A stretch of DNA of 64,000 nt, taken from the NCBI RefSeq assembly GCF_006345805.1, contig NC_043016.1, positions 29,450,001 to 29,514,000 of the forward strand. Direction: 5' to 3'. The position numbers were made by a program, and so were the translations under genes. This DNA comes from Octopus sinensis. Its lineage: Eukaryota. A model generated the notes under the pieces. That model had not been told where the DNA came from. It saw only the letters and a program-made list of their open reading frames with translations, and did no database searches. Below, piece by piece: positions 10,957-60,431 of the stretch (its first letter is position 1; every line of letters begins with the position of its first letter).

Positions 10957-13604
10957 TGTTCTTTGTCTTCTTTTCACTTTAGTAATTTTTGCTCACGAAC
11001 ATTATACAAAAATTTATTCTAAGTTGGGCTTTTTTTTTTCATCGCTGTATCAAATCAGAAATATGTGAAATTAAATAAAATAAAAAATTAAATAATATAA
11101 AGCTATTCGTCTTAACTCGTTTGAAATCGGAGATTTTTTTTTCCCCAATATAATAATTTATCAGATTGTATCTTTATATAAATTATATTCCAGGAAACTG
11201 ATTCTATTTTCATCGAAGATCTGTTTATGATGTGTTGTAACGATTTTCACACTATAAGGAACTTATTTAAAATATTCTGATTATGTGTCTTTATCACGAG
11301 GCTCTTAAAATTCCACGTTTTTGCTCAGCCCAGACCTGTCTGTGGTGGTGGTACGCTGCTGCCGCCGCCACCACATCTGCACCTACCCATGATCATAATA
11401 ATGTTTGTGAACAGCTTCAAACTATATTAAATTCAGTCTTAGCTGTCTCGTCTACGTGTTTGCTGGCTGTCATCTATTTCTTCAATTTTCTATCATCTTT
11501 ATGGACGAGAAAGTTGTTGGTGCTCAAAAACATTAACGGAAGTTGTCATATATGTATATCCTGTTAGAAATTAATCTTAGTACCTCTTCCCGCCAAGAAT
11601 TGGTGGGGGCCCACCTACCTATATGCTAATTGTTAAATAACTTCTTCATCACAGAACAAGGATAATATAGTGAATCTTTTTATTATTATTATTATTGAGA
11701 AAAACAAAGACTTTAAAAGATTAAGTCCAGTTACCCTGTTAAATGCAATATCACTACTTACTGTTTACATTTGTGAGTATGATCTAATTTGTTTCCTATT
11801 AGAGTTGTTTAGATAAAAAGAATTCAATTGTATTTTTTAAAACTTTAACAATTACATTTATAGATTATTAGATAGCCTCTTTCTTAAATTTATATATGAT
11901 TTTGCTATTACAGCTAAAGAAATGTGTGCTTTTGATACATACCCTTTGGTCGATTATTCCTTTCTAACTGATTTACCTCTCTTTTTTTCCTAACTTATCT
12001 TTTCTTCGTCTCAATATATTTCAACATAAAAGCCATTTTATAAATACTGGATCGGTGACCTTCCTTTCGATTAGAATTTTATCTTGTATCAAGGTCAAGT
12101 CTCCTCATACATGTAGAAAATAACCTAAAACTAATATTTAGTAGCCCCTTTATATATTTTCGTTATTTTCAATGTATTCCCCGTAAGAACGTACTTAACT
12201 CCAAAGATTGTTTCCCCCTTTATTTTTTTTTTAGTTATATTATTCCGTTCCTTATATTTGTACACGTGGTTAACAGTCATTTTGCTTATATAGTTACATA
12301 GTAGTATTTAATAGTCTTGTAAGATAAAGCTTGTTAATTTATTACAAGGTCCAATATGTTTTTATTGAACCAATTATCTTTAATTGAGTAAACTGTTTTC
12401 GCATCGAAAACTTTATAGGGGACATAACTGATTTTTGGGAAATGTTGTTTATAAATGGACGTTCGTTTATAAAATATCCGGCTTATATAAACACGTATGG
12501 CGATTTCTATGTTAAATAGCAAATCAACTTGTGATAATTATATATAAAAAAAAATTAGGTTAGGAGATCTGTGAATTTTAAATTCTTCTGCTTGCTGCTC
12601 GCGAAATCGACTCTTTGTAATCTCATTTTGAAAAAGATTACCATAGCCCATCTATCGTATTTTTCATCGTGTGTACGGGTATTTTTTAAATTTTTTACCC
12701 GGAATGTGGTTCTACAGTGGAAACGTACATATTGTGGTTGTATGTGCTGTGAGAATATCAAATTAATAATAATAATATCTAAATAATGGCTAAACTGGCA
12801 ATATGACCATTCCGAAATATAACAATAAATAATATCACCTTTGGAAGAAATGTGTTGGTTTTAAATATAGGTATTGAAGTTGCAATCGTTATTAAACATT
12901 ACCGAAAATTATGATAAAATTTCTGAAGACAAATTCCTATATGATAAATTGAGGATTTTTTTTAAAGCTTTAGATGAAGTGAAGAGGAAGCAAGACCGAT
13001 TTAATTGGTTGCTTATTAGAAGTTTGTTTAAAATGTTAACGTAATTCACAAAGTTCTCTCGATAAATGTAATCGCTGTTTGATCATAGTCAAATAATAAT
13101 CCAGTAATTCAGGTTCTTTAATTTTCTGTCTAAAAAATTATAAAAGTTATCGGAACAAAGTTGTGTGGATAATTTACAAGATCTCTTAAATTTGACGGTG
13201 GTCTTCAAATATGAAAGGTGGTAAAAGGCCCCCTTACCCCCCCACCCCACCAACAACTTGCACGTCAAGTCATAATGTTTCTTATATAGTTGACAGTGGT
13301 GATAAATTTCGATTATTTTGTGATAGTGGGATATATAAAAATTTATATGTGTGTATGTGTATATATATGTTGTTTTGGTTTGCGTCCTTTGCTTACATTT
13401 ATCTCTCTTTTTAACAGGTGAATTAATTCAAAACTAATGATTTGAAATATCAAATAATAACAATCAGCAAGAAATAGCGTTAAACGCCTTCTGTAATATG
13501 TAGTATTGAGAGTTAAGCAATTGCTATACATGGAAAATAGTGACTTAACAGGGAAAGCTGGCCATAAAAAATAACGGATTCTCTTTGAAAATATTTTTTA
13601 TAAA

Positions 13605-16600
13605 ATGGAAATATCTGGAAACAACCTTCCTCAGTCAATAAATCCAGATACAATTCAAACTCAAGATGGTAGTATTCAAATTCCATCAACCCATGTTGGA
13701 TCACTCACATCTGAATCTCATGCAGTAACTGATGTGGATATCATTTCTGGGACCTCTCTTAGTTCTGTTCCTGGTGCCATAGTTACATCGGCTGGTGTTC
13801 AGCAAACGCAAACTGTTCTTGTCTCACCAGAGTTATTCACTACATTACCCCAAGTGCAGCCAACGTCAGAAGGTATAGAAACGACTGAAGTTACTAGTAC
13901 CACACTTGGTGGAGTTACTTATGCTTTTATCAAAGGTTTGGATAGTAGTCTTGGTAGTCAGGCAACATGTATCACTACACCAAAATCCATACTCACAGGA
14001 CAGTCTGGTGGTATGGATGTAGAGTTGATCCCTGTAGATAATGTAGCCCTTCAAGTGATGGCTGTTGAAACTAAATCTAATGATAAAGAAAAAGACCAAG
14101 ATAAAGATGATGGCTCATCCATCAAACACCAAATGATACAGCATGCTGTTCTTGTTCAAGATCCTAATAGTCAAATCTCTTCTCTGACTGGCAAAGATAC
14201 AGAGTTTATGACCACTTCTGGTAATGTTAGTTTATCTGTAAACAACACCTATGTTTGCGAAGATGGTAGTACACTTGATAGCACACCAATACAAATAACT
14301 TCAAAAGATTCAAAGATGGAAGAGAAAAATCCTGCTTTAGAAGCAGCCATTCAAGAAACTTACTTTCAACTGGACCATAACATGCTAAAATCTAGTGGTG
14401 TTGACCTGAATAAAGCAACATTGCAAGCATCTGCTGATGGTGCACAGTTCTTTGTCATTGACTTGAGTGAAACTGAAGTTCAGAATTCCATTCCAATGGA
14501 AATAGAAACTGAACAAATAATCAAGGAGGAAACTGTAAGTATCGATTCATCAGCAATGAATATTGACTCAAATAATGATGAGACCAATGAAGTGCCTACT
14601 GAGTCATCACCTTATTATGTTGTTCAGCATGTGACAAAAACGGATTCAGATCAACCAGAAAAGTATTTTCCAATTAAGCAGTTACCAGCAGATTTAAAAG
14701 GCTTGGTGTCTCTTTCTCCTGATATTAAGTCTAAAGAAACACCAGTAGCTATTTCCTTGCAAAAAGATTTGGAGACAATGCAAAAATCAGTGGCAAAAGA
14801 AGGAGATGTGCTTTCAGTTGACCCAAAAGCTTCTAGTAATGAATTGCTTATCACCAATATCCAAGGGGGACATGAGGTAATAATGGTTGATATTGGTAGT
14901 GCAGCATCTATTGTTACTGAGACAATAAAAACCTCTACTGATGCAGACCTTGAGGGAACCGAGCAAAAAGACAATAATCAACAATATGTATTTGATGTTG
15001 TTGGTTCCGAAGAACAGTCAGCAGGCAATTTATTAACAGCTAAATCTGGCTCTACTCTTTTGACAACCACTTCAACTGTGACCAGTACTCTTGGATCAAC
15101 AACCACAACATCCATTAATACACAGGCTGCTTCCAAATTTAGAGATGCTGGTCAGCAAACTGAGAAATCTCGGCAAGCAGCTGAACAAAAACAATCTGTA
15201 CTATCAGCAACATTGCCGCCAAAGCAGACTGTAGTCTCACAAGCTGTATCTCAAGCTAAGCAAGTTCAGGTTCAGTCTACATCTCCTTCAAATCCAGTTG
15301 TATCTTCTCAGCATGTTCAGCTTATTAATAAACAAGCTGGACAGTCTACATCCGCTTCTACACCATCTACAATTAACACCTCTAAACAGATGCAGGTAAC
15401 ATCTCAATTGCCAACAAAACAGACATTTGTATTTGCTCCAAAACCAGCTCAGGTGGCACAAACCTCATTACTGAAACAGGCACAAACAACTCAGCAAACT
15501 TTGCTTAAACAACCAGTAACAAGTGCATCTTTGCCGAAATTGGACCAATCCCAGCAAAGTACAGTTTCTAAGTTGGTTACAACACAGCCAATCACTTATA
15601 CTCAGGCTAAACAATCTTCTCAGCTCCAGTCAGCAGTTACTCCTTCTAAACTTGTACCTTCCAAAGTATCACTAATATCTGCACCTAGACCATCGACTGT
15701 AAGTCCACAGACAATAACAATAAAACAGCCACAAGCTCAACAGGTTTCTTTGCAACAGATGGCTTCGATGTCTAAAACAGGGCAGTCCTTACTTCAGCCG
15801 TCACAAGAAGCTCAAGTACAATCGTCTGTAAAGACCACGCCTGTGCAGTTGAAGCAAACAGTTACTCAGCCAATAACACTTCCACAATCTAAACAAATTG
15901 TACTACAATCATCCACCACATCTCCACAGAAACAGACTCAACCCCAACAGATTACTACATGGCAAGTCCAATCGCCAGTATCAAAACCAGCACAGTCGGT
16001 ACAAGTTAAACCAGGTCTCCAAGTTTTACAGCCAAAACCCATTCAGCGTTTACAACCAAAAGAAGGAGTGCAAGCACAAGCTAGCATACTGCAACAACAG
16101 CAACAGCCTAAGCAAATAGCAAAATCTCCAACAACACAAGTGCAAATGACTTCTACACAACAGTTGTCGGCTAAAACTACGACTGCACAACCAGTAACAA
16201 AACAAATTATTGTACAACAGTCTCCGAAAACAGTTACAGTGCAACAGCAGCAATCCACTAAACCAATTACTGTACAACAACAACAGCAGCAGTCCCCTAA
16301 AACAGTTACTATACAGCAGCAGCCTTCTAAACCAGTAACACTACAACAGCAGCAGCCTTCTAAACCAGTTACAGTACAACAACAGCAGCCTTCTAAAACA
16401 GTTACTATACAGCAACAGCAGCCTTCTAAGCCAGTTACAGTACAGCAGCAGCTTTCTAAACCAGGTACAGTGCAACAAGCTACAAAGTCAATTATAATAC
16501 AACAACCAGCCAAATTGGTCTCAGCACAACAGCAGCCAGTAAAATCAGTTACAATACAGCAGCAAGTACCAGTAAAATCAACAGCTGTTCAACAACAGCA

Positions 16601-19600
16601 GCCTACTAAAACAATTTCAGTGCAACAGCAATCTGAAAAGCCAGCAGTGGTGCTACAGCAACCGGCCAAGTCTGTTACTCTTGTACAGCAACCTGCAAAA
16701 TCTGTGACTTTGGTACAGCAACCGCCTTTAAAAGTAACATCCTTGCAACAACAGCAGCAAACCACAAAGTCTGTAACCGTGCAACAGCAAACTGTAAAGT
16801 CAACAACTTTGTCTCAGTCAGAGCCAGGTAAAACAACTGTAACACAACTGCCAGTTAAGGCTGTTGTCTCACCACAGACGCAAAAACCTATTGTTGTGCA
16901 AGTGCAAAAGCCAGTTCAAACAACACAGGCAGCAGTGACCCAAGTTTCATCACAACAAACATTGAAGCCATCGCAGCCTGCTGTCACTACTTTAGTTTCT
17001 ATTCCGTCACAGCAACAATTACCAAAAACTGTAACTGAAACACTTGTTGGTCAGCAGCAATCAGCAAAATCAGTTAATGTTCAGCAGTTAGTTAGTCAAC
17101 AAGAACCTATTATTCAGAAGCAGGTGATGTCAGCTGCATCTACATTACAACAACCACAGTCTAAAATCTTATCTGTCACTCAACCAGCCTCCACGCAACC
17201 TAGTACGGTACAACAGCAAACCTCAAGACTACATGAAAGTGTGCCAAAAGGCCAAACTCCAGAATCAAAAATATTCTCAGATGTTAAATCTAAAGATCAA
17301 CAGCAATCCTCCACTGCACAATCACAACAGCTTAAAAGTATGAGATCATTGGTAGTGCAACCAGGGAAAGCTCCAGAAACTGTACAAAAGGAAAAATCTT
17401 TAGGAACAGAAACAAAAAGGACAGAAGCAGTGTTGAACACTGTAAAGAAAGCAATGGTATCACAAGAAGTGGGGAAGAAACCAGAACATGTGCAAGATGT
17501 TCAGAAACAGACAGAATCATTACAGAAGGCTAGTAAGGAATCAGGCACACCACCTGTGAGTGTTAGAAGAACAGAAATACCACAGGAAGCTGGGAAGAAA
17601 GCAGAGCATTTGCAAGATACTGCAAAGAAAATAGACCTTTCCAAAGATGTTGCAAAGAAAGTGGAACTGTCAAAAGAGGCTGCAAAGAAGATGGAATCAT
17701 CAAATGAGGCTGCGAGAAAAGTGGAGCCACCAAAAGATGTTGGGAAGAAGGTGGAATTGCCAAAAGATGCAAAGAAAGTTGAACCACAAAAAGACGTTCC
17801 AAAGAAGGTTGAACCACCAAAAGATGTTGCAAAGAAGGTAGAGCCACCAAAAGATGTTCCAAAGAAAGTGGAACCACCAAAAGATGTTGCAAAGAAGGTA
17901 GAACTTTCAAAAGATGTTCCAAAGAGGGTTGAACCACCAAAAGATGTTGGAAAGAAGGTAGAAATGCCAAAAGAGGTTGCAAAGAAGGTGGAGCCTCCAA
18001 AAGTAGAAGTACTAAAAGATACTGCGAAGAAGATGGAAGTGTCAAGAGATGCTGCCAACAAAGTAGAACCATCAAAGGATGCCACAAAGAAAGTGGAACC
18101 ACCAAAAGATGCTGCAAAGAAGGTGGAACCACCAAAAGATGCTGCAAAGAAAGTAGAACCACCAAAAGATGCAGCAAAGAAGGTAGAGCCACCAAAAGAT
18201 GCAGCAAAGAAGGTAGAGCCACCAAAAGATGCAGCAAAGAAGGTAGAGCCACCAAAAGATGCAGTAAAGAAGGTGGAACCTCCAAAAGATGTTCCAAAGA
18301 AGGTAGAACCACCAAAAGATGCTGCAAAGAAGGCAGAATCACCAAAAGATGCAGCAAAGAAGGTAGAGCCACCAAAAGATGCTGCAAAAAAGACAGAACC
18401 ACCGAAAGATGCTGCAAAGAAGGTAGAGCCACCAAAAGATGCTGCAAAGAAGGCAGAACCACCAAAAGATGCCACAAAGAAAGTGGAACCACCAAAAGAT
18501 GTTACAAAGAAAGTGGAACCATCAAAAGATGCTGCAAAGAAAGTGGAACCTTCAAAGGATGTTGGAAAAAGGGTAGAGCCACCAAAAGATGCTGTAAAGA
18601 AAGTGGAATCACCAAAAGATGCTGCAAAGAAGGTAGAACCATCGAAAGAGCTTGGAAAAAAGACAGAGTCGCCAAAAGATGCTGCAAAAAGAGCTGAACC
18701 TATTAAAGATGCTGGGAAAAAGGTAGAAAGTGCGAAGGATGCTGCAAAAAAGGCAGAGGTACAAAAAGATATTGGGAAGAGAGCAGAACCTGTGAAAAAG
18801 GTGGAGTCACCAAAAGATGCTCAGAAAGTAAAAGATGTTGGAAGAAAAGAAGTATCAAAAGATACTGGGAAAAAGACAGAATTTGCCAAAGATGTTGAGA
18901 AGACAGAATCACCGAAGAAAGTGGAGGTGTCTCAGGAAACTGTAAAGAAGGCAGAATCTTTGAAAGAAGCAGCTGGGAAGAAAGCAGAAACAACAAAGGA
19001 GACTAATCAGCAAAGTTCTATGACAAAAACTGTCGGGGAATTAAAATCTATATCTATTAATAAACCAAAAGAAGATGCAGCTGTAGCTGGCCAGACGCAG
19101 ACAGTGAAGGTACAAGTACCAATGACCAGTATTTTAAAACAAGTAGGGGAAACTAACAAGGAAGTGCAACAAGTTGAACCACCTCAAAAGATGCAGAAGT
19201 TTGACTCTCCAAAATACCAGTTAAAGTCCTCCACCACCAGTGCTGCAGGACATCATTTAGGAGTTGTCAGCATTCCAGAAATGACTGTTACTACACAAGC
19301 GAATCAAGCAGTTGTTGGTACTCTAGAAAGTCAAGTGGAGGTTGTGAGTACTCCAAGTAACCAAGTAGAGATTGTCAGTACTCCAAGTAACCAAGTAGAG
19401 ATTGTCAGTACTCCAAGTAACCAGGTAGAGATTGTTAGTACTCCGAGTAATCAAATAGAAGTTGTGAGCACCCCGGAAAATAAAGTAGAAGTTGTTGGTG
19501 CGTCAGGGAACCAATTACAAGTTTTTGGAACTCAAATGAGTCAACTGGAAGTTGTTGGAGCTTCTGGAAATCAGTTGACAGTTGTCAGTACTTCAGGGAA

Positions 19601-22600
19601 TCAACTGGCACTTGTTAGTACCCCTAGCAACCAACTAGAAACATTTAGTATTTCAGAACAGCAGCTTCAGGTTGTTGCTGGTGGGGAGACTCTATTGCAA
19701 ACAGTTAACAGTGGAGAGCAGCCACTAGAAGCATTGGATGGCCAGACACAACAGCAACAACTAGAGGCAGTAGTTTTACAAGATCAGGGAACACTTAGTA
19801 TACAACAATTAGCAGCCAGTCAACAAGCTGTAACTGAACAGCAAGACGATGTACAGATTATTGAGTGTGCAACTCCAGATTTGACTGGGAACAAAGGACA
19901 AACAGAAGCAGCAACTCCAAGACGTAGAGGTAGGCCACCTAAGTCTACTACTCCAGCAGCATCTCAGGCCACTAAAAGCACAGATAGTGAGTTTGAAACT
20001 CCAAAATCCAGTAACCGATCTTTACGTGTTCGGAGCAAAGAAACCAGTGGTGATGAATCAGAGCCTAGTGCTACAAAAGAAACCAAACAAACAAAGAGAA
20101 AGTCTTCCAAAGAAACTGATTTATCCGAAGACGCTGAACAAAGTGTTGATAGTGCAGGGGAATCTAAGAATGAATCTACTTTAAAACGAAAGCGAGGTAG
20201 GCCTCGGAAAGATGATCCTCCTAAGAAAGCAGAAAAAGCAACCACTGAAAAACACGACACGCCTTCTTCAAGTCAAAAGAGAGGTCGTCCAAGAAAAGAT
20301 TCATTAGAAAAGAATTATGATGTTGATTCTCCAGAAGGACGAGCTAAACGTCAGAAGATTAGCAATGAAGAAGAGGAGGAGGACGAAGAAGAAGGTAGGC
20401 GCCGTTCTGGCAGAATAAAGAAAGGTCAGGAAGAAAAGTCACAGAAAAAGTCCTCTCCTGAAACATCTACTAAGAAAAAGGAAAAATTATCTTCAAAGGG
20501 CAAGGACGCAGCAAAAGAATCACCGAATGTGTCAAAGAAAGCTGAAGATACTCTGCCACGTCGTGGTAGACCAAAAAGTAAGGAAACACCAAAATCTGCA
20601 AAGAAAGATGCTGAGAGTATTGAAGTAGCTGAGAAATCTTCAGGTCGCCGATCAAAGGCAGCGAGTGAGAAAGATGGTGAGCCAGTTGCTAGCACTTCTG
20701 GAATTAAGTATGTCAGGAAGCGTAAGGCTGAATTTGATGACGATGAGGTGCCTTCAGAAGAAAGTGATGAAGCTGTTAGTGAATTATCAAGAATTGATCT
20801 TCCATCTAAAGTTTCTATGGCTTCGCCAAAAAAGAAAGCAAGGTATTTTGAAGATACTGCTGTAGGTACAAGTACAATTTATGATGATAGTGAAGATGAT
20901 GATGTTGACGAAGATGAAGAGGAGGAAGAGGAGATTGAAGAAGTTGAGGAAGACGACGAGGATGATGACGAAAGTGATGAATATATAGGAACTGTTATCA
21001 CTTCTCCTAGAAGTAAAACCATGTCGTATTCTCATATTAAAAGTAGTAATGAATCCATGCGAGACATGAAACAGGAGCCTCTTGAAATGGAAGTAGAGGA
21101 CATGGAAGGGTATATTGAAGATAAAAATGACAATACTATTGAAGACAGAGATGATAGAGAGGAAATTTATGAGCTTGAAGAAGAATCTTTGTCAAGAATT
21201 ATCTGTGGAGATGATGGAGCAGTTCTCACTCCTATTAGAGTTCACAGGCGGAGACTTGATGACAAACAAGATGATATTTATAACATTGATCAAATTGATG
21301 AGGATGAGTTTTTGGCTGCAAAAAATGCTGCTATGCAAGACAAATCTCCAAGGACACCACAGACACCTCAGTTTGTTGAGGTTGAAACTGTTTTTGAATC
21401 TCCTGGTAGACGATCTGTACAAACACAGACAGATCCACGACTGAGAAAAAAGAAATTTGGACCACTTGGGCAAGAAGGTGAAATTGATGAAATAGATGCA
21501 GATGATGGAGATCTTTATAGAAGACGTCGCCGAAAGAAGGAAGAGTCAGATTTCAGTTTATTTGAAGATGAACCGAAGCGCAAGAGTGTTAAAAGAAACA
21601 CTGAAGAAGCTCTGAAATGTCCATTTTGCGATAAGGCCTTCATTGGTCTGGTAAAGCATATTAAGAGTAAACATCGCCATGAAGCAGATTATGATGAAGA
21701 AATGCGTAATGCAAAATGGAGAGAGCGTATCATGAAAGTTTCAACACAAGGTGGGGACGAAGCTGGTGAGACCTGTTCTGAATGTGGTAAGGTCACGAAA
21801 AATATGAAGCGCCATCAAGAACTTCACCAGCAAAACAGAATGCAAAGCGCTTGTCCAATTTGTGGAAAGGTAGTCTTAAGAACAGGAATCAGCTCTCACA
21901 TGCGCACTGTTCATTCTGGAAGAAAGCCTTATAAATGTCCTCATTGTGATTATTCATCAGCATTCCGTGGAAATCTTAACACTCATATTAAAGGTATGCA
22001 TTTGCACACTCGTCAATATCTCTGTGACGTATGCAAAGCTGCATTCAAAACTTTAGGTGCTCTTATTGGGCATACGAAACGAGTACATGAAGGTTGGAAA
22101 TCTCCTAATCAAAAAATTTTCATTTGCTCTGTCTGTGAGAAAAGGTTTACAAAGAAGTACCATGTTGACCGGCACATGCTTATACATACAGGAGAAAAAC
22201 CACACAAGTGCACTGATTGTGGCCGCTGCTTCAATAATAAGTCGAACCTTATGTCTCATATTCAATTAGTGCATAAGAAATTATCACCTTATCAATGTGA
22301 TATGTGCCAGGAGACTTTTAAACGTAAGAAATTATTGCTTGAACATATTGGAAAAGTTCACGTAGCTGCTGGAGAAATGGCTCCACTGATTAAAGACGAA
22401 GATGATGATGATGATGAGGATGAAATGTTAGATGATGGTATGGATGATGAGGAGATTGATGACATGAGAAAAGTAACCGAATTAGTACAATCTCAAGCAG
22501 TATATGCTACAGTAACTGATGGTTCAGTTGCTGAAGGAACTTATACTGCTGTTGTCACTGATGCAGCACACGAACTTAACAATCAGACAATAACTACATT

Positions 22601-22769
22601 ACAAACAGAGGGTGGACAAGAGACCATTATTATTGTGCATACAGCTAACCCAGAAGAAGTTGCTCATGCTATCGTTGAACAGGGAGATGGAACAGTGCAA
22701 TACGAAACATCTGGTCAAACTATCACTGGAACAACTGCAGCTGAATTATTTTCTCAAATGCAGTCTTAA
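13605..22769 (+). CDS. 3054-aa AT-hook / C2H2 zinc-finger protein with long low-complexity and decapeptide-repeat regions
   Basis: Open 9165-bp ORF. Eight C2H2 fingers at 21618-22361 (linkers SGRKPY, TGEKPH); AT-hooks RRRGRPPK, KRKRGRPRK, KRGRPRK and RRGRPK (19920-20580); D/E tracts; basic NLS-like SPKKKAR and RRRRRKK. Confidence 0.95.
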   Translation: MEISGNNLPQSINPDTIQTQDGSIQIPSTHVGSLTSESHAVTDVDIISGTSLSSVPGAIVTSAGVQQTQTVLVSPELFTTLPQVQPTSEGIETTEVTSTTLGGVTYAFIKGLDSSLGSQATCITTPKSILTGQSGGMDVELIPVDNVALQVMAVETKSNDKEKDQDKDDGSSIKHQMIQHAVLVQDPNSQISSLTGKDTEFMTTSGNVSLSVNNTYVCEDGSTLDSTPIQITSKDSKMEEKNPALEAAIQETYFQLDHNMLKSSGVDLNKATLQASADGAQFFVIDLSETEVQNSIPMEIETEQIIKEETVSIDSSAMNIDSNNDETNEVPTESSPYYVVQHVTKTDSDQPEKYFPIKQLPADLKGLVSLSPDIKSKETPVAISLQKDLETMQKSVAKEGDVLSVDPKASSNELLITNIQGGHEVIMVDIGSAASIVTETIKTSTDADLEGTEQKDNNQQYVFDVVGSEEQSAGNLLTAKSGSTLLTTTSTVTSTLGSTTTTSINTQAASKFRDAGQQTEKSRQAAEQKQSVLSATLPPKQTVVSQAVSQAKQVQVQSTSPSNPVVSSQHVQLINKQAGQSTSASTPSTINTSKQMQVTSQLPTKQTFVFAPKPAQVAQTSLLKQAQTTQQTLLKQPVTSASLPKLDQSQQSTVSKLVTTQPITYTQAKQSSQLQSAVTPSKLVPSKVSLISAPRPSTVSPQTITIKQPQAQQVSLQQMASMSKTGQSLLQPSQEAQVQSSVKTTPVQLKQTVTQPITLPQSKQIVLQSSTTSPQKQTQPQQITTWQVQSPVSKPAQSVQVKPGLQVLQPKPIQRLQPKEGVQAQASILQQQQQPKQIAKSPTTQVQMTSTQQLSAKTTTAQPVTKQIIVQQSPKTVTVQQQQSTKPITVQQQQQQSPKTVTIQQQPSKPVTLQQQQPSKPVTVQQQQPSKTVTIQQQQPSKPVTVQQQLSKPGTVQQATKSIIIQQPAKLVSAQQQPVKSVTIQQQVPVKSTAVQQQQPTKTISVQQQSEKPAVVLQQPAKSVTLVQQPAKSVTLVQQPPLKVTSLQQQQQTTKSVTVQQQTVKSTTLSQSEPGKTTVTQLPVKAVVSPQTQKPIVVQVQKPVQTTQAAVTQVSSQQTLKPSQPAVTTLVSIPSQQQLPKTVTETLVGQQQSAKSVNVQQLVSQQEPIIQKQVMSAASTLQQPQSKILSVTQPASTQPSTVQQQTSRLHESVPKGQTPESKIFSDVKSKDQQQSSTAQSQQLKSMRSLVVQPGKAPETVQKEKSLGTETKRTEAVLNTVKKAMVSQEVGKKPEHVQDVQKQTESLQKASKESGTPPVSVRRTEIPQEAGKKAEHLQDTAKKIDLSKDVAKKVELSKEAAKKMESSNEAARKVEPPKDVGKKVELPKDAKKVEPQKDVPKKVEPPKDVAKKVEPPKDVPKKVEPPKDVAKKVELSKDVPKRVEPPKDVGKKVEMPKEVAKKVEPPKVEVLKDTAKKMEVSRDAANKVEPSKDATKKVEPPKDAAKKVEPPKDAAKKVEPPKDAAKKVEPPKDAAKKVEPPKDAAKKVEPPKDAVKKVEPPKDVPKKVEPPKDAAKKAESPKDAAKKVEPPKDAAKKTEPPKDAAKKVEPPKDAAKKAEPPKDATKKVEPPKDVTKKVEPSKDAAKKVEPSKDVGKRVEPPKDAVKKVESPKDAAKKVEPSKELGKKTESPKDAAKRAEPIKDAGKKVESAKDAAKKAEVQKDIGKRAEPVKKVESPKDAQKVKDVGRKEVSKDTGKKTEFAKDVEKTESPKKVEVSQETVKKAESLKEAAGKKAETTKETNQQSSMTKTVGELKSISINKPKEDAAVAGQTQTVKVQVPMTSILKQVGETNKEVQQVEPPQKMQKFDSPKYQLKSSTTSAAGHHLGVVSIPEMTVTTQANQAVVGTLESQVEVVSTPSNQVEIVSTPSNQVEIVSTPSNQVEIVSTPSNQIEVVSTPENKVEVVGASGNQLQVFGTQMSQLEVVGASGNQLTVVSTSGNQLALVSTPSNQLETFSISEQQLQVVAGGETLLQTVNSGEQPLEALDGQTQQQQLEAVVLQDQGTLSIQQLAASQQAVTEQQDDVQIIECATPDLTGNKGQTEAATPRRRGRPPKSTTPAASQATKSTDSEFETPKSSNRSLRVRSKETSGDESEPSATKETKQTKRKSSKETDLSEDAEQSVDSAGESKNESTLKRKRGRPRKDDPPKKAEKATTEKHDTPSSSQKRGRPRKDSLEKNYDVDSPEGRAKRQKISNEEEEEDEEEGRRRSGRIKKGQEEKSQKKSSPETSTKKKEKLSSKGKDAAKESPNVSKKAEDTLPRRGRPKSKETPKSAKKDAESIEVAEKSSGRRSKAASEKDGEPVASTSGIKYVRKRKAEFDDDEVPSEESDEAVSELSRIDLPSKVSMASPKKKARYFEDTAVGTSTIYDDSEDDDVDEDEEEEEEIEEVEEDDEDDDESDEYIGTVITSPRSKTMSYSHIKSSNESMRDMKQEPLEMEVEDMEGYIEDKNDNTIEDRDDREEIYELEEESLSRIICGDDGAVLTPIRVHRRRLDDKQDDIYNIDQIDEDEFLAAKNAAMQDKSPRTPQTPQFVEVETVFESPGRRSVQTQTDPRLRKKKFGPLGQEGEIDEIDADDGDLYRRRRRKKEESDFSLFEDEPKRKSVKRNTEEALKCPFCDKAFIGLVKHIKSKHRHEADYDEEMRNAKWRERIMKVSTQGGDEAGETCSECGKVTKNMKRHQELHQQNRMQSACPICGKVVLRTGISSHMRTVHSGRKPYKCPHCDYSSAFRGNLNTHIKGMHLHTRQYLCDVCKAAFKTLGALIGHTKRVHEGWKSPNQKIFICSVCEKRFTKKYHVDRHMLIHTGEKPHKCTDCGRCFNNKSNLMSHIQLVHKKLSPYQCDMCQETFKRKKLLLEHIGKVHVAAGEMAPLIKDEDDDDDEDEMLDDGMDDEEIDDMRKVTELVQSQAVYATVTDGSVAEGTYTAVVTDAAHELNNQTITTLQTEGGQETIIIVHTANPEEVAHAIVEQGDGTVQYETSGQTITGTTAAELFSQMQS
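17590..18830 (+). repeat. Coding 30-bp minisatellite encoding about 40 KKVEPPKDAA-type units
   Basis: Repeated aagaaggtagagccaccaaaagatgctgca; most homogeneous at 18090-18490. Confidence 0.95.
19330..19650 (+). repeat. Coding 30-bp repeat encoding STPSNQVEIV-type units
   Basis: agtactccaagtaaccaagtagagattgtc repeated and decaying, about 10 units. Confidence 0.9.
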
Positions 22770-27185: not shown

Positions 27186-27884
27186 AGGCTAACTGATTAT
27201 ACATCCACATTTTTTACCAGTTTTAGCCATGCTGAGGCATCAAGTAATTTTAGTCAGTCATATGGATCCAACTTCTTATTTCAGTATGATACTTAGTTAG
27301 TTGACAGTTTAAATTAGATTTTTAACTCGTATAGTTACATCTTTGGTTACTATCTTCAAACACATTACCAATTTAGCATCACTATATAAATAAGTTTCTG
27401 TTACCTATATGTAATGGGAAGCTACTTTATTTTATCAAGCAGCAGTGGGAGACTTCTGAAGATTTTTAATTTGATAACCTGGTTACAGTTTTAATACATA
27501 TAAATATATATGTTATAGATTACATGGGAGTCAAATGTCTTAGAGTTAATAACAGTTTCAATTATGGATGTTTGAAAAGAAAAAAGAAAAAATTTACATT
27601 AGATTTCAAGTAATAATTGAAAAATTACTTATAAATATTGTCATTACCACTAGGCCTTCATTTTAGATAATTTGTTTTCATTAATCCAAACAGTATTTAT
27701 GATGTGAGAAATTTAATGGTTGTGAAATGAAAATGTGCTATTTTGTGGGTTTTATTTTAAATTTATTGTCATAACTTCCCAAAGATAAAAGAAATTTCAT
27801 TTTTACCAAATAGAAAATATGAGAATTTTTTCAATTTATTGATTATGCTTCTTAAGACTGTCATAATTACTTTTTTTTTCAATC

Positions 27885-38679: not shown

Positions 38680-40968
38680 AACGAGGCTGCAATACTGATG
38701 GTTCACTTGCACTAAACGAGGCTGCAAAGAGAGAGGTTTTGAGATGCCACTATGAAAGGTTGCTCAATAAAGAAAATGAGTGGGAGAAAGAGAGTCTGCC
38801 GAATGTCAACCTAACAAAGGGACCAGCTATCTGAGTTGACAGTACCTTGGTAGATAAAGCAATTAAGAGTATGAAGTCAGGGAAAGCCCCTGGCCCATCA
38901 GGAATAACTGCAGAGATGCTCAAAATATCTGGCAGTGTCGGCTATAGCCTAGTCACCTGTATAGTTAACCAGGTGATACACAAAGGAGTCATATCCAATG
39001 ACTGGTGTAGCATCACCATAGTCAACTGCTACAAAAGTAAAGGTGACACTTTAGATACAAATAATTACAGAGGTATCAAGTTGTTGGATCAAGAAATGAA
39101 AGTCACGGAGAGGGTCATAGCCTAACTAATTAGGGAGAGAGTCAGTTTAAATGAGATGCAGTTTGGGTTCGCACCAGGGATAAGCACCACTGATGCTATA
39201 TTTCTGGTAAGACAGCTGCAGGAGAAATACCTAGTCAAAGATAAACCTCTGTACCTGGCTTTCGTTGACATGGATCTCTTATCTGGTGGTCAATGAAATA
39301 ACTAGGGATAGATGAATGGTTAGTGAGGACTGTGCAAGCCATTTACAGGGATGCTGTCAGTAAGGTGAGGGTTGGCAACGAGTACAGCCCCCTCCTATTT
39401 ATCATAGTCCTCCAGGCAATAACAGAGGAATTCAAGACAGGATGCCCCTGGGAGCTCCTCTATGCTGATGACCTTGCTCTAATTGGTGAGTCACTAGAGG
39501 AGAAGTTTCAGGTGTGGAAACAAGGATTAGAATCAAAGAGCCTTAGAATCAACCTAGCTAAAACCAGTCCTAATTAGTAGGAAGGCAGGCAAATCACAAA
39601 TCCCTTCAGGTAGATGGCCCTGCTTGATCTATAGAAAAGGTGTAGGTAGAAATTCTATAAGATGTACCCAGTGTAAGCTATGGACACATGGGGTGCAGCA
39701 ATATCAAAGGAAGGCTAACTGGGAAGATAGTTTTTGTATGTGGCAGATGCTCAGGAGCAATAAACACTGAAAATGTGCAGAGAACAACTACTGCCACATT
39801 CCAGAGAGAAAAATTAGAAGTAGTTGATAGCTTCCGTTACCTAGGTGACCAAGTCAGTAGCAGGGGAGGATGTGCTAAAAGTGTAGCTGCTAGAATAAGA
39901 ATAGCCTGGGCAAAGTTCAGAGAGCTCCTACCTCTGCTGGTGACAAAGGGCCTCTTGCTCAGAGTAAAAAGTAGACTGTATGACGCATGTGTATGAACAG
40001 CCATGCTACGTGGCAGTGAAACATGGGCTGTAATTGCTGAGAACATGCGTAAGCTTGCAAGGAATGAAGCCAGTATTCTCCACCGGATGTGTAATGTCAG
40101 TGTGGATACTCGACAGAGTGTAAATACCTTGAGAGAAAAGTTGGACTTAAGAAGCATTAGCTGTGGTGTGCAAGAGAAGCGACTGCACTTGTATGGTCAT
40201 GTGGCGAAAACGGATGAGGATAGCTTCTGTGAAAAAGTACTATACTCTAGCGGTTGAGGGAACCTGTAGAAGAGGTAGAGCCAGGAAGACCTGGGATGAG
40301 GTGGTGAAGCACGACCTTCGAACATTAGGTCTCACCGAGGCAATGACTAGTGACAGAGACCTTTGGAAATATGCTGTGCATGAGAAGACCCGGCAAGCCA
40401 AGTGAGACCATAACCTCGTGGCCTATGCCAGGGGTGTACCCAGCCCACTTATTATGCGTACCTTCCCTTCATTGGACACTAAGCTCTGCTTGTGAAGACC
40501 TATTAAGGCAAGTGACATCGAAATCGTAATCAAATTCGATGACTAATAGCACCATCCGAGCACGATCGATGACAGAGCAGCTGACTGGCTTCTGTGCCGG
40601 TAGCACGTAAAAAGCACCATTCGAGTATGATCATTACCAGTGTCTCCTTACTGACACTTGTGCCGGTGGAACGTGAAAAAGCATTCGAGCGAGGTCGTTG
40701 CCAGTGCTGCTAGACTGGCTCCTGTGCAGGTAGCATGTAAAAGCACCATTTGAGCATGGTCGTTGCCAGTACCACTGGACTGGCCCTCTTGCCAGTTGCA
40801 TGTAAAAGCACTCACAATACTCTCGGAGTGGTTGGTATTAGGAAGGGCATCCAGATGTAGAAACTCTGCCAGATCAGATTGGAGCCTGGTGCAGCCATCT
40901 GGTTCGCCAGTCCTCAGTGAAATCATCCAACCCATGCCAGCATGGAAAGCAGACATTAAACAATGATG
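38680..40968 (+). mobile_element. RTE-clade LINE, 5'-truncated, disrupted ORF plus full 3'UTR
   Basis: KSGKAPGPSG, NYRGIKLL, QFGF, SPLLFIIV, LLYADDLAL, FRYLG, YGSETW-like and WDEVVKHDL motifs; stops and frameshifts. Confidence 0.95.
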
Positions 40969-48254: not shown

Positions 48255-48812
48255 TGGATTGTAGGACAGCCTGCTGTGCTTATCTTGGATCATAAGATGA
48301 TCTGCTGTGCTTGAGGAAACCTATTGAGTCAAGTACATCAACATCAATACAAAAATCAAATGGAAATCGTAGTTGTGATACGTGTGCCGGTGGCATGTAA
48401 AAAGTACCATCCGAATGTAGCCAATGCCAGCGCTGCCTTGACTGGCTTCCGTGCCGTTGGCACGTAAAAAGCACCATCTAATCATGGCTGTTGCCAGCCT
48501 CCTCTGGCACCTGTGCCGGTGGCACGTAAAAAGCACCATCCAAATGTGGCCGATGCCAGCGCCACCTTGACTGGCTTCCCTGCCGGTGACATATAAAAAG
48601 CACCAACCTATCGTGGCTGTTGCACTTGTGCCGGTGGCCTGTAAAAAGCACCCACTACACTCATGGTGTGGTTGGCATTAGGAAGGGCATCCTACTGTAG
48701 AAACACTGCCAGATCTGACTGGAGCCTGGTGCAGCCTCCTGGCTTCCCAGACTCCGGTTGAACAGTCCAGCCCATGCTAGCATGGAAAACAGACGTTAAA
48801 CAATGATGATGA
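48255..48812 (+). mobile_element. RTE-tail SINE with five GTGCCGGTGGCAC-GTAAAAAGCACC units
   Basis: Units at about 48384, 48451, 48513, 48580 and 48628; ends gttaaacaatgatgatga. Confidence 0.85.
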
Positions 48813-48814
48813 TT

Positions 48815-52341: not shown

Positions 52342-52378
<37 letters not shown>

Positions 52379-52583
52379 CAATATGAAAATGGAGGGGACC
52401 AATTGTTGGTTCATCAACTTTTAGACATTATATTATGTTAACTTATTTATTTATTTACTAAACTGATAATTACAATAATATACACACATATACATATTAT
52501 GCTTTACATATAAGATATAAAATATAGTAATATATAAGGATATCAGTAATTATTATAAAGTAACATGACTATAAATTGGGAAA

Positions 52584-52713
52584 ATAACTTACAGCTGTTT
52601 CAGCCAAGAGGTAAAAATACCTCATTCTACCTTTATTACTCAAGTGGAGCGAAGTAAGAGGCAGATGAAACTGAAGTACTTGGGTATATCTCTAGGCTTC
52701 GTCAGAGATTATA
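52584..52713 (-). ncRNA. Hammerhead ribozyme motif with intact core and 79-nt loop II (family 3)
   Basis: Minus strand TATAATCT-CTGACGA-AGCCtAGAG-[79 nt]-CTCTtGGCT-GAAA-CAGCTG-TA|AGTTAT; GUA cleavage triplet. Confidence 0.75.
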
Positions 52714-52829
52714 AAGTACATAATGTTAAGTTATAAATAAATATAAATATAAAATAAATGAAAATACACACACATTTATATATTTATATATCATATATAT
52801 ATATATATATTCATATTATATATATATAT

Positions 52830-53690
52830 ATTTACGTTAAATAGATGTGTGTATTTTTCCCTTGTTAACAATTAACACGGAAAAAATATATAAATAGTTA
52901 CCAGGTTAGCAAAAAATTGCACAAGTAAAGAGGTTGTAACTCCTTGTTTTTAAAGGTAGAAACTTCAGGTTTACGTGGAATTTTTTCTATAATATATAAA
53001 TAAATGGAGTTTAACACAGGTATAATTCAAACACTTTTACTTCTGACACATGTTTTGAAGATATCACTGATATTATTCCAAAGGAATAATGGTGTAAAAC
53101 AATGTAATCTTCTCTTCAGGGAAGTGAAGAAATGAAACTCATCAATAAGACATTTTAATAGAAAATGATGGATATATATAGTGATTTACTGAACACTATT
53201 GATATTGTTTGAAAAAACGTTATATGATATAACGTCAGAAGTAGCCTATAGAAAGAGGAGGGATATTTTTTTTAGTAAATGTTAAATATAAAAGAAAATT
53301 AATGTTTAAATTATATATAATGATAGAGATTACTTATATGAGCAAAAGGTGTGTTTTTGCCAATGTTTACATCGGTATGCACGCTCTATAACCATGTTTA
53401 CTAGGGGATTTTTAGAAAAATAATGAAAAATAGTTCAGAATTACAGAGAAGACAAAATTCTTTGCCTTTGTCATAAGGTATTGAGATTGAGAGAATCAAC
53501 CATTCTAAATAAAATTGTTCATTGTGGTTTTAGATCCCAAATTAATTTACTGAGTCCTGTACTGTTACGTTTATTCCTATCCCTAAATGTCGAGTAATGG
53601 ATAGAAATTCTTTTAGATAACTGTAACGATGTGCTTCCAACGTAAAATTGTACTTTATTATGAATAAACGTAACAGTACAGGGCTCAGTA
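52830..53690 (-). mobile_element. 5'-truncated Penelope-like element (Naiad-like GIY-YIG C-terminus) with hammerhead remnant and 5' inversion
   Basis: FYVGSTSLQLSKRISIHYSTF...STGLSKLIWDLK...W.I...PYDKGKEFCLLCNSE...LVN...CKH, stop at 53330-53332; hammerhead remnant 53039-53125; 29-bp inversion 53548-53576 / 53662-53690. Confidence 0.8.
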
Positions 53691-55734: not shown

Positions 55735-56518
55735 AGTATGATGCATGTGTACGAACAGCATGCTACATGGCAGTAAAACATGGGCCGTGACTGCTGAGGT
55801 CATGCGTAAGCTTGCAAGGAATGAAGCCAGCATGCTCCACCGGATGTGTCATGTCAATGTGTATACATGACAGAGTGTAAGTGCCTTGAGAGTAAAGTTG
55901 GACCTAAGAAGCAACAGATGTGGTGTGCAAGAGAGATGACTGCACTGGTATGGTCATGTGGTGAGAGTAGATGAGGACAGCTGTGTGAAAAAGTGTCACA
56001 CCCTAGCAGTTGAGGGAAGCTGTGGAAGAGGTAGACCCAGGAAGATCTGGGATGAGGTGGTGAAGCATGACCTTCAAACATTAAACCTCACTGAGGCAAT
56101 GAGTAGTGACTGAGACATTTGGAAATATGCTGTGCTTGAGAAAACTTGACAAGCCAAGTGAGACCATAACCCATGGCCTATGCCAGTGGTGTAACCATCC
56201 CATTTATGCATACTTTTCTTTCATTGGACACTAAACTCTGCTTGCGAAGACCTGACTCCTGTGCAGGTGGCACGTAAAAAACACCATTTGAGCATGGCTG
56301 TTGCCAGTGCCGCCTGACTGGCCCTCATGCCGGTGGCGCATAAAAGCACCCACCACACTCTCGGGGTGGTTGGTGTTAGGAAGGGCATCCAGCTGTAGAA
56401 ACTCTGTCAGATCAAGATTGGAGCCTGGTGCAGCCATCCAGGTCGCCAGTCCTCAGTCAAATTGTCCAACCAATGCCATCATGGAAAGTGGATGTTAAAC
56501 GATGATGATAATGATGAT
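55735..56518 (+). mobile_element. 5'-truncated RTE LINE 3' end
   Basis: Homologous to 39980-40968. Confidence 0.9.
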
Positions 56519-57104
56519 GTATGTATATATATATGTGTGTATGTATGTGTATATATATATATATCAACCCATGCTAGCATGGAAAACGGACGTTAAACGA
56601 TGATGATGACAGTTATATATATCTGTATATATATATATATATATGTGTATATATATATATGTATATATGTATGTATATATGCATATATAGATATGTATAT
56701 ATGTATGTATATATGCATATATGCATATATAGATATGTGTATATGTATATATATGTATATATGATAATTATCATCATCATCACCAAAATTTTGAAGTTAC
56801 AAAGTAACATGTGGTTAATTAAAAACAATATGGATGAAAAAAGTATCACATTTGATAGAATAATCTGAATGCTAAAGGGTTTAAGAAGATGGAGCCTGTG
56901 GGAGAGAGAAACCTCAGAAGACATGGGACAAAGTGAAGAAGAATGGTCTTGGGATAGTGAACCTCTTAGAGAAGATGATAAAAGATTGTAGCAATTGCCA
57001 ACATGCAGTACTGGAAATGAATTACCCACCTACACAAACAAATGTTGTGTACAAAATGCTAAAATGATAAAAGCAATGGAAACTGGAAGCTGTATATATA
57101 TTTA

Positions 57105-59900: not shown

Positions 59901-60431
59901 CAATCACTTTTGAAAATAATGAAGAATTTAATAAAATATCTTTGTAATTATTAAGCTGGTGTTTGGAACCTAAATTAATATGGAATTTTGATGGAATATG
60001 TTTGAATCAAGGCAGTTGCAGGTGGGGCTGGTATCAAAGGGGTTAAAACAGACACAAGGTAAAGACCTGGAAGCTAAGTCATATGACTTGTTGAAATATG
60101 CTATCATTATTTCAATTAATTTTGAAAATAACGAAGGATTTAGTAAAATATTTTTATAATTTTTAAGTTGGCGTTTGGAACATAAATTAACATGGAATTT
60201 TGGTGGAAGGATTTAATTTAGATCTACTTTGCAACAGGAAGTTTGTATTACAGAACCAGGGGTAGTCTCAGGTGGAGGTTGTTATCAAAAGGGTTAAAGA
60301 AAGTAAATATTTGAATCTGATATTGCAAAACTGAAGTAAATTGTAATGATGGCTTTGTTTTATTTTTCTATTTCAGATTTCACTCTTGTTTCTTTGTTGT
60401 CTCCGCATATGTATATCAATGGTAATCCACA

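Follow-up and report, generated by a model that had tools for sequence, protein, structure and literature searches.

The question raised by this locus is whether a stretch of minus-strand DNA from Octopus sinensis, in which two hammerhead core boxes lie 97 nt apart, is a genuine ribozyme motif, what kind of element carries it, and whether this particular copy can be expected to cleave. The window (i.e., the whole stretch of 64,000 nt that was analyzed) holds the motif at 52584-52713. Our answer, which we consider very probable, is a type I hammerhead within an end fragment, truncated on its 5' side, of a Hydra-like Penelope retroelement (PLE), likely used for self-cutting of the parent RNA, probably as a dimer, with a window copy that is predicted to be misfolded. 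The parts of the motif, in the order in which the RNA would be read, are:

52706-52713, minus strand: stem I, 5' strand (from sequence)
52699-52705, minus strand: core box CUGACGA (CTGACGA in DNA), C3-A9 (from sequence, descriptor scan, and conservation)
52690-52698, minus strand: stem II base, 5' strand (from pairing across copies and the published Hydra layout)
52611-52689, minus strand: distal stem II arm, 79 nt, a predicted bulged hairpin (from folding)
52602-52610, minus strand: stem II base, 3' strand (from sequence and pairing across copies)
52598-52601, minus strand: core box GAAA, G12-A15.1 (from sequence and conservation)
52591-52598, minus strand: palindromic stem III, ACAGCTGT (from sequence and energies)
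52589-52590, minus strand: predicted cleavage site after GUA, between 52590 and 52589 (from the hammerhead consensus)
52584-52589, minus strand: stem I, 3' strand (from sequence)

Read from the letters, every element of a hammerhead is present on the minus strand: an intact CUGACGA/GAAA core, a GUA site, and a palindromic stem III. The sequence-only reading had reported the intact CTGACGA and GAAA, a 9-bp stem II with one mismatch, the palindrome, GUA, and a bulged stem I, and all were confirmed where it had placed them. Stem I joins 52713-52706 to 52589-52584 with one bulge and A-U outer pairs, is open and flanks the predicted cut, and is 97.5% paired at its proximal two pairs in 40 copies. 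The base of stem II, formed by 52698-52690 and 52610-52602, is 9 bp long and includes a single U-U mismatch; its first A is an extra N beside A9, as in Hydra hammerheads, after which the closing pair G10.1-C11.1 is GC in 38 of 40 copies. The computed energy of stem III is 0 kcal/mol alone and -11.1 kcal/mol as a self-duplex, and stem III therefore likely requires a second molecule.

Scanned on both strands with a strict descriptor, the window returned three rows, of which only 52584-52713 has 8/9 stem II pairs together with a short palindromic stem III; the remaining two are a single A/T-rich site at 27456. It is also the sole intact core among the four hammerhead-like motifs that we found in the window; a relaxed core scan missed the main motif itself and is not usable as a count. 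As judged from sequence, the motif is a genuine type I hammerhead of PLE type, with core and NUH site in place and cleavage predicted, which agrees with the earlier proposal of a Penelope-type hammerhead, i.e., type I with a palindromic stem III of the dimer type.

General searches do not see it, as had been anticipated for descriptor searches. The descriptor of Cervera 2014 allows 3-7 bp for stem II and 3-10 nt for loop 2 (PMC4209133 supplement), and with a loop 2 limit of 10 nt it therefore misses a long-armed motif. Rfam gave 0 matches at the gathering score, and at E<=10 there were 27 matches below threshold, most of them TA runs hit by miRNA models, with no hammerhead in either case. Along the same lines, the arm matched no Rfam family at threshold, its one sub-threshold match being MIR395 (19.5 bits vs 56).

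The letters at the cut site invite a different reading. GUAAGU at 52592-52587 (minus strand) matches the 5' splice-site consensus, and GUAAG is conserved across all four subfamilies of the repeat described below, where stem I pairing accounts for the letters too. A 5' splice site is not favored: besides the stem I account of these letters, the contigs contained no splice joint. Parts of the stretch are covered by four contig sets guessed to be RNA, which mix copies and show no ends.

The motif belongs to a dispersed repeat. A 201-nt query yielded 1135 first-look candidates in the 2.72 Gb genome, with 40 full-length matches that are 88-97% identical, the window itself aside; queries from four subfamilies (A, that of the window, to D) yielded 1135, 1095, 568, and 755 candidates, which may overlap. 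From 233 loci, coverage and fuzzy core filters left 139 distinct copies (43 A, 34 B, 30 C, 32 D), including 27 A, 28 B, 24 C, and 22 D copies with an exact core. The window copy is about 70-80% identical to B, C, and D. The closest sister copy, at L092:4756-5175, is 97% identical over the hammerhead and lies 42 kb further downstream. It adjoins a methyltransferase-domain exon (PF13679), which probably belongs to a gene starting near window position 60426; this gene may be GSTCD-like, an identity for which Pfam gave no confirmation.

The ends of the copies point to the kind of element. In the window, the limits are:

52378-52790, minus strand: pLTR/end fragment, truncated at its 5' end, of a Hydra-like Penelope element of subfamily A (from genome copies and end comparison)
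52344-52377, no strand: (TA)n run adjoining the 3' end of the element, probably its target (from a repeat scan; same in other copies)
52777-52831, no strand: TA-rich run at the truncated 5' end (from a repeat scan)

This fragment of ~410 nt, flanked by TA runs, stops at the family's inner 3' end and has no ~175-nt tail. The 5' ends differ widely among copies, while two 3' ends are fixed: among the first 30 loci, 16 end like the window copy, six extend about 175 nt further to a second 3' end followed by (TA)n, and eight are otherwise broken. Insertion in (TA)n was found for the window copy and for other copies. Loci with several hammerheads are mostly inverted pairs; inverted 5'-truncated partners occur in L268, L125, L269, and L093, and in the last three one arm has the extra 3' stretch and the other has not. 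This predominance of inverted pairs is a PLE signature, and such an end and inverted layout is described for PLEs, where the tail is given as 30-40 bp (PMC8557442), in contrast to the ~175-nt extra stretch here. A repeat scan of the window found no tandem array over the window copy. A MITE reading was rejected, as terminal inverted repeats were not seen at the ends of the copies.

The copies also decide whether two short motifs have met by chance in A/T-rich DNA. The sequence-only reading had, beforehand, made conservation of the core relative to the flanks one half of its test, and on this half the core came through. The majority letter is the same in all four subfamilies at 22/22 core, stem I, and stem III columns vs 34/129 insert and flank columns (Fisher p 1.4e-11), a contrast in which core conservation is inflated by the fuzzy core match used to pick the 139 copies; G12-A14 is likewise invariant in 139/139 of these core-filtered copies. 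Basal stem II columns agree across subfamilies at 7/8 positions. The core is thus kept perfect across an arm of ~100 nt, and therefore, as far as conservation can tell, it is under selection in source elements. A chance arrangement would account for the missing Rfam match and for a minimum-energy fold of the window copy that is not a hammerhead; it is refuted by core-specific conservation across subfamilies only about 70-80% identical, and the motif sits where PLE hammerheads are expected, so that we regard it as extremely improbable.

The 79 nt between the halves of stem II had been described as an insert and as a loop, and neither description held. The distance between core boxes is 90-97 nt in A, 97-109 in B, 108-113 in C, and 97-98 in D; with an arm of 90-113 nt in all four subfamilies, the 79 nt are therefore not a private insert of the window copy but a family-wide trait. 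For this stretch, folding predicts for the most part an extension of stem II rather than an open loop (-18.2 kcal/mol, z -2.2). Folded without the basal 9 bp, the arm reaches z<-2 in 27/27 A, 12/22 D, 10/28 B, and 2/24 C copies, and the distal arm of subfamily C has little structure (median z +0.22). In a 40-copy alignment drawn from the 139, 80% of the 1479 cells are paired under a named structure of 37 pairs, compared with 34-42% in slid controls, the structure being derived from the same 40 sequences and the cells counting related sequences; its covariation score was reached by 0/500 shuffles. Pairs with changes on both sides (15 vs 13.0; 112/500 shuffles) and pair types (189/500) were not above shuffles, and unconstrained RNAalifold on the 40 copies recovered a 5-bp local hairpin rather than stem II and the arm. 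Distal both-side changes are found at 64-97 (AU/GC), 50-105 (CG/UA), and 52-103 (CG/UA). Outside the arm, the divergent copy L140 carries a double change in the palindrome (CAGCTG to CGGCCG) that keeps it palindromic. A conserved nascent 'off' hairpin over CUGACGA was also considered and is unsupported (median z -1.8, 0.0, -1.0, and -1.0 in the four subfamilies).

From these folding models, the arm appears in A and D to be a genuine bulged hairpin with partial compensation; in B and C its distal part is looser, and the tip is variable. The simplest view is of an expansion that was tolerated and is held closed to let the core form. Selection of the arm as a functional domain, e.g., a binding platform for the element's protein, with its reverse transcriptase (RT) and endonuclease (EN), that chaperones cleavage or loads RNA, would fit the retention of 90-113 nt in all four subfamilies, the both-side changes at several distal pairs, and an anole PLE hammerhead that cleaves only with its own protein (PMC11167929). 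We consider it unlikely: the independent events are few and the pair-count measures do not exceed shuffles, the distal arm of subfamily C is unstructured, and selection just for closure of the core predicts the same pattern. A broader version is similarly doubtful. It would turn stem II of octopus-type Hydra hammerheads into a ~100-nt folded domain that has a task of its own, for instance RT/EN docking that couples cleavage to template loading, present in thousands of copies and several unrelated families and invisible to descriptors; if true, 'hammerhead-less' PLE families may need re-examination. As for the suggestion that loop II supplies tertiary contacts or carries cargo, the tip sequence differs among subfamilies and the arm holds no Rfam family at threshold, which speaks against both.

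What the hammerhead is attached to was sought in 20 larger stretches, and then six more, around RT sequences. Walking upstream from the hammerhead revealed an RT-like frame in L091. RT, zinc linker, EN, UTR, and hammerhead are collinear in L133 and in L137 with L266, RT, EN, and hammerhead are collinear in L142, and L268 reads hammerhead-ORF-hammerhead with an additional inverted copy. In L138, L267, and L268, respectively, 476, 478, and 494 nt separate an upstream hammerhead from the ORF start region. Only 3/30 loci found with the ORF-start region retain an upstream hammerhead, which is what 5' truncation would produce. The gap from EN to hammerhead is ~2.8-3.4 kb in two loci and may include later insertions.

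The ORF has 181 homologues, mostly ~700 aa, a protein assigned to Octopus sinensis is 81% identical, and a Pfam search of the ORF pieces gave no family. In L142 and L138, RT (YRDD) is followed by a C-terminal GIY-YIG-like EN (VVY...VYIG), read by eye, with the GIY-YIG regular expression unmatched. RWK and DKT are both in the N-terminal piece of L138, and DKT is in L142, whose linker has CNCRIKDNC (CxCX5C), CPLC (CxxC), and CLH (CxH); CCHH is, as judged by eye, absent from EN. The Hydra clade is defined by RWK, DKT, CxCX5C, CxxC, and CxH (PMC8557442, section 11), and at the level of motifs RWK, DKT, YRDD, CxCX5C, CxxC, and CxH of the octopus ORF match this definition. The Nematis clade (CX2-5CxxC linker, CCHH in EN) was ruled out, the linker here being CxCX5C. 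The Hydra-type ORF (L142:2524-5237, L138, L125) has long Asn-rich expansions within the linker joining RT to EN, and L138 has a duplicated EN piece within the RT N-terminus. Relatives of the window motif thus flank an RT and GIY-YIG ORF with Hydra-clade motifs, and the window motif is therefore very probably the pLTR hammerhead of a Hydra-like PLE, the clade being assigned from motifs.

In-line links between hammerhead and ORF come from subfamilies B, C, and D. For subfamily A, no intact in-line element with hammerhead and ORF was found among the loci examined; in L124 an inverted piece (88%) sits next to ORF pieces, and L091 has a shorter such piece. The EN region of L124, used as a query, gave mostly 61-nt matches, and L125 runs from RT/linker into UTR with no EN match. 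Subfamily A may therefore be partly non-autonomous. The stronger form, that A copies are not stubs of full elements but retrozyme-like parasites that carry the hammerhead and borrow the Hydra protein, draws on the excess of end parts (1135-2335 candidates, compared with 86 from the ORF start and 542 from RT), on L125 as an EN-less internal-deletion copy, and on the proposal that animal retrozymes derive from PLE pLTRs (10.64898/2026.07.22.740005). We find it improbable: 5' ends vary widely with no fixed unit, the window copy has no tandem array, loci with several hammerheads are mostly inverted pairs as in PLEs, and in sister subfamilies this sequence runs on into the ORF.

Whether the window copy itself would cleave is a separate matter. 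It differs from the subfamily A majority at six positions, five within the arm (52675, 52671, 52662, 52658, and 52650, all with letters rare in A). Its minimum-energy fold departs from the hammerhead, the G10-C11 pair has a probability of 0.0, and G12-A14 pair with the arm in the ensemble. Forcing the hammerhead fold costs 18.1 kcal/mol, rank 22 among the 23 copies of A whose stems are intact (median 9.0; four more, with broken stems, were left out). Two of the rare letters, 52675 and 52671, lie within the helix that competes over G12-A14 (P 0.63-0.86), and 52569 is a rare letter in a helix competing over stem III. In these nearest-neighbour predictions, made without protein or partner RNA, the window copy misfolds and its hammerhead fold is poorly accessible.

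The sequence-only reading had named this copy the best candidate for an active ribozyme. That stands in so far as its core is the only intact one of the four in the window; it does not stand for fold access, with G12-A14 predicted to be occupied by the arm. An active window copy that cleaves host transcripts, aided by loop II contacts or cargo, has its core letters and palindrome in its favor, as well as the neglect of proteins and tertiary contacts in nearest-neighbour models. Against it stand the predicted penalty and pairing just given, an unconserved tip, the weakness of PLE hammerheads in vitro (PMC4209133), and the solitary position of a copy whose stem III needs a partner, no same-strand partner being present nearby; we hold this reading to be quite unlikely. 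On its own, the single window copy is of little interest.

For the parent element, the following course can be proposed. As expected from PLE biology, a tandem transcript would read out of the 3' UTR, across the hammerhead, and into the 5' UTR that follows. In source elements, two hammerheads would pair via the ACAGCUGU palindrome and cut after GUA, which would place a 5' end ~480 nt ahead of the ORF; cleavage may be weak and dimer- or protein-assisted. The element protein would nick (TA)n, with reverse transcription beginning 210-390 nt downstream of the hammerhead, and its early termination would leave a ~410-nt stub such as that in the window. Tandem transcription, target-primed reverse transcription, and assisted cleavage are taken from PLE work (PMC4209133, PMC11167929, PMC6765202). 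The long arm likely grew from loop II in an ancestor of the four subfamilies, and would have been kept as a mostly closed hairpin because its pairing joins the two core halves, while the distal sequence drifted. The anole element inserts in vitro without need for cleavage (PMC11167929).

Comparison with described systems suggests that a Hydra-like PLE hammerhead is already known and that the ~100-nt arm is what is new. Hydra-clade hammerheads (Craig et al. 2021, PMC8557442) are likewise type I with an extra N on either side of stem II, share the N-stem-N-GAAA and ACAGnnCUGUA layout, have a short near-palindromic stem III (e.g., ACAG-TA-CTGT-A in Penelope-1_SK), and belong to elements with RWK/DKT/CxCX5C and (TA)n targets. 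Their loop 2, however, measures 3-10 nt in every one of the 26 Hydra rows in File S2, compared with 90-113 nt between core boxes in the octopus family, and Hydra elements are given as 'generally <3 kb', unlike the Asn-rich ORF and the EN-to-hammerhead gap of ~2.8-3.4 kb here. The published Hydra-1_Obim has a different hammerhead, and its printed protein sequence differs on reading; it is not the octopus family described here. Metazoan PLE min-HHRs (Cervera and De la Pena 2014, PMC4209133) share a CUGANGA-N core with a short stem I, a palindromic helix III, a predicted dimer, and mostly solitary truncated copies, but in 56 aligned examples helix II is up to 7-8 bp and loops reach about 10 nt; similarly, the 'long helix II' of PMC13725137 is 6-8 bp.

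The spike-moss PLE-X1 hammerheads (PMC8557442 File S2) are flagged as non-canonical for an enlarged loop 2 (35 and 29 nt), which has about half the arm length and occurs in EN-less, Chlamys-related elements with 28S rDNA targets. The Anolis Poseidon element PAc (PMC11167929) also has a pLTR hammerhead, AT-rich targets, and an internal RT start that leaves a one-sided tail, but it is of another clade and its ORF begins inside the hammerhead rather than ~480 nt downstream. Animal non-LTR retrozymes (10.64898/2026.07.22.740005; PMC7229834) are non-coding, multi-copy, and PLE-tied with a type I hammerhead, as here; they form tandem units of fixed length, whereas none were found here and the coding element is contiguous in sister subfamilies. 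In the literature searched, no report of a PLE hammerhead with a ~100-nt stem II was found.

PLE hammerheads are known; the long-armed family shows apparent core selection where standard searches see nothing. This argues for repeating the searches with a long stem II, including PLE families reported as hammerhead-less or with only 'half cores' (PMC8557442). The strong distal arms of A and D and the weak ones of C offer a natural comparison for cleavage assays.

The other hammerhead-like motifs of the window are also on the minus strand. A second, divergent family member at 45288-45170 has a CCGAAGA core (U4C) and the same palindrome as the window copy, with a 100-nt arm predicted to fold (-20.3 kcal/mol) and a weakened basal stem II; it resembles L078. 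At 53119-53045, 340 nt upstream of the main motif, lies a hammerhead of a different repeat family, with a 56-nt folded stem II, the palindrome ACATGT, and A in place of G12; its relatives in L021, L124, L264, and L269 retain GAAA. A decayed short-stem motif at 26365-26328 has a CTGATGG core and boxes 21 nt apart. Elsewhere in the window, 48375-48813, 56252-56660, and 40544-40811 are copies of a common repeat family with 65-67-nt units, and 13575-22769 on the plus strand is a single open frame of 3064 codons, Gln/Thr-rich and with 10-aa repeats, that ends in C-terminal C2H2-like zinc fingers.
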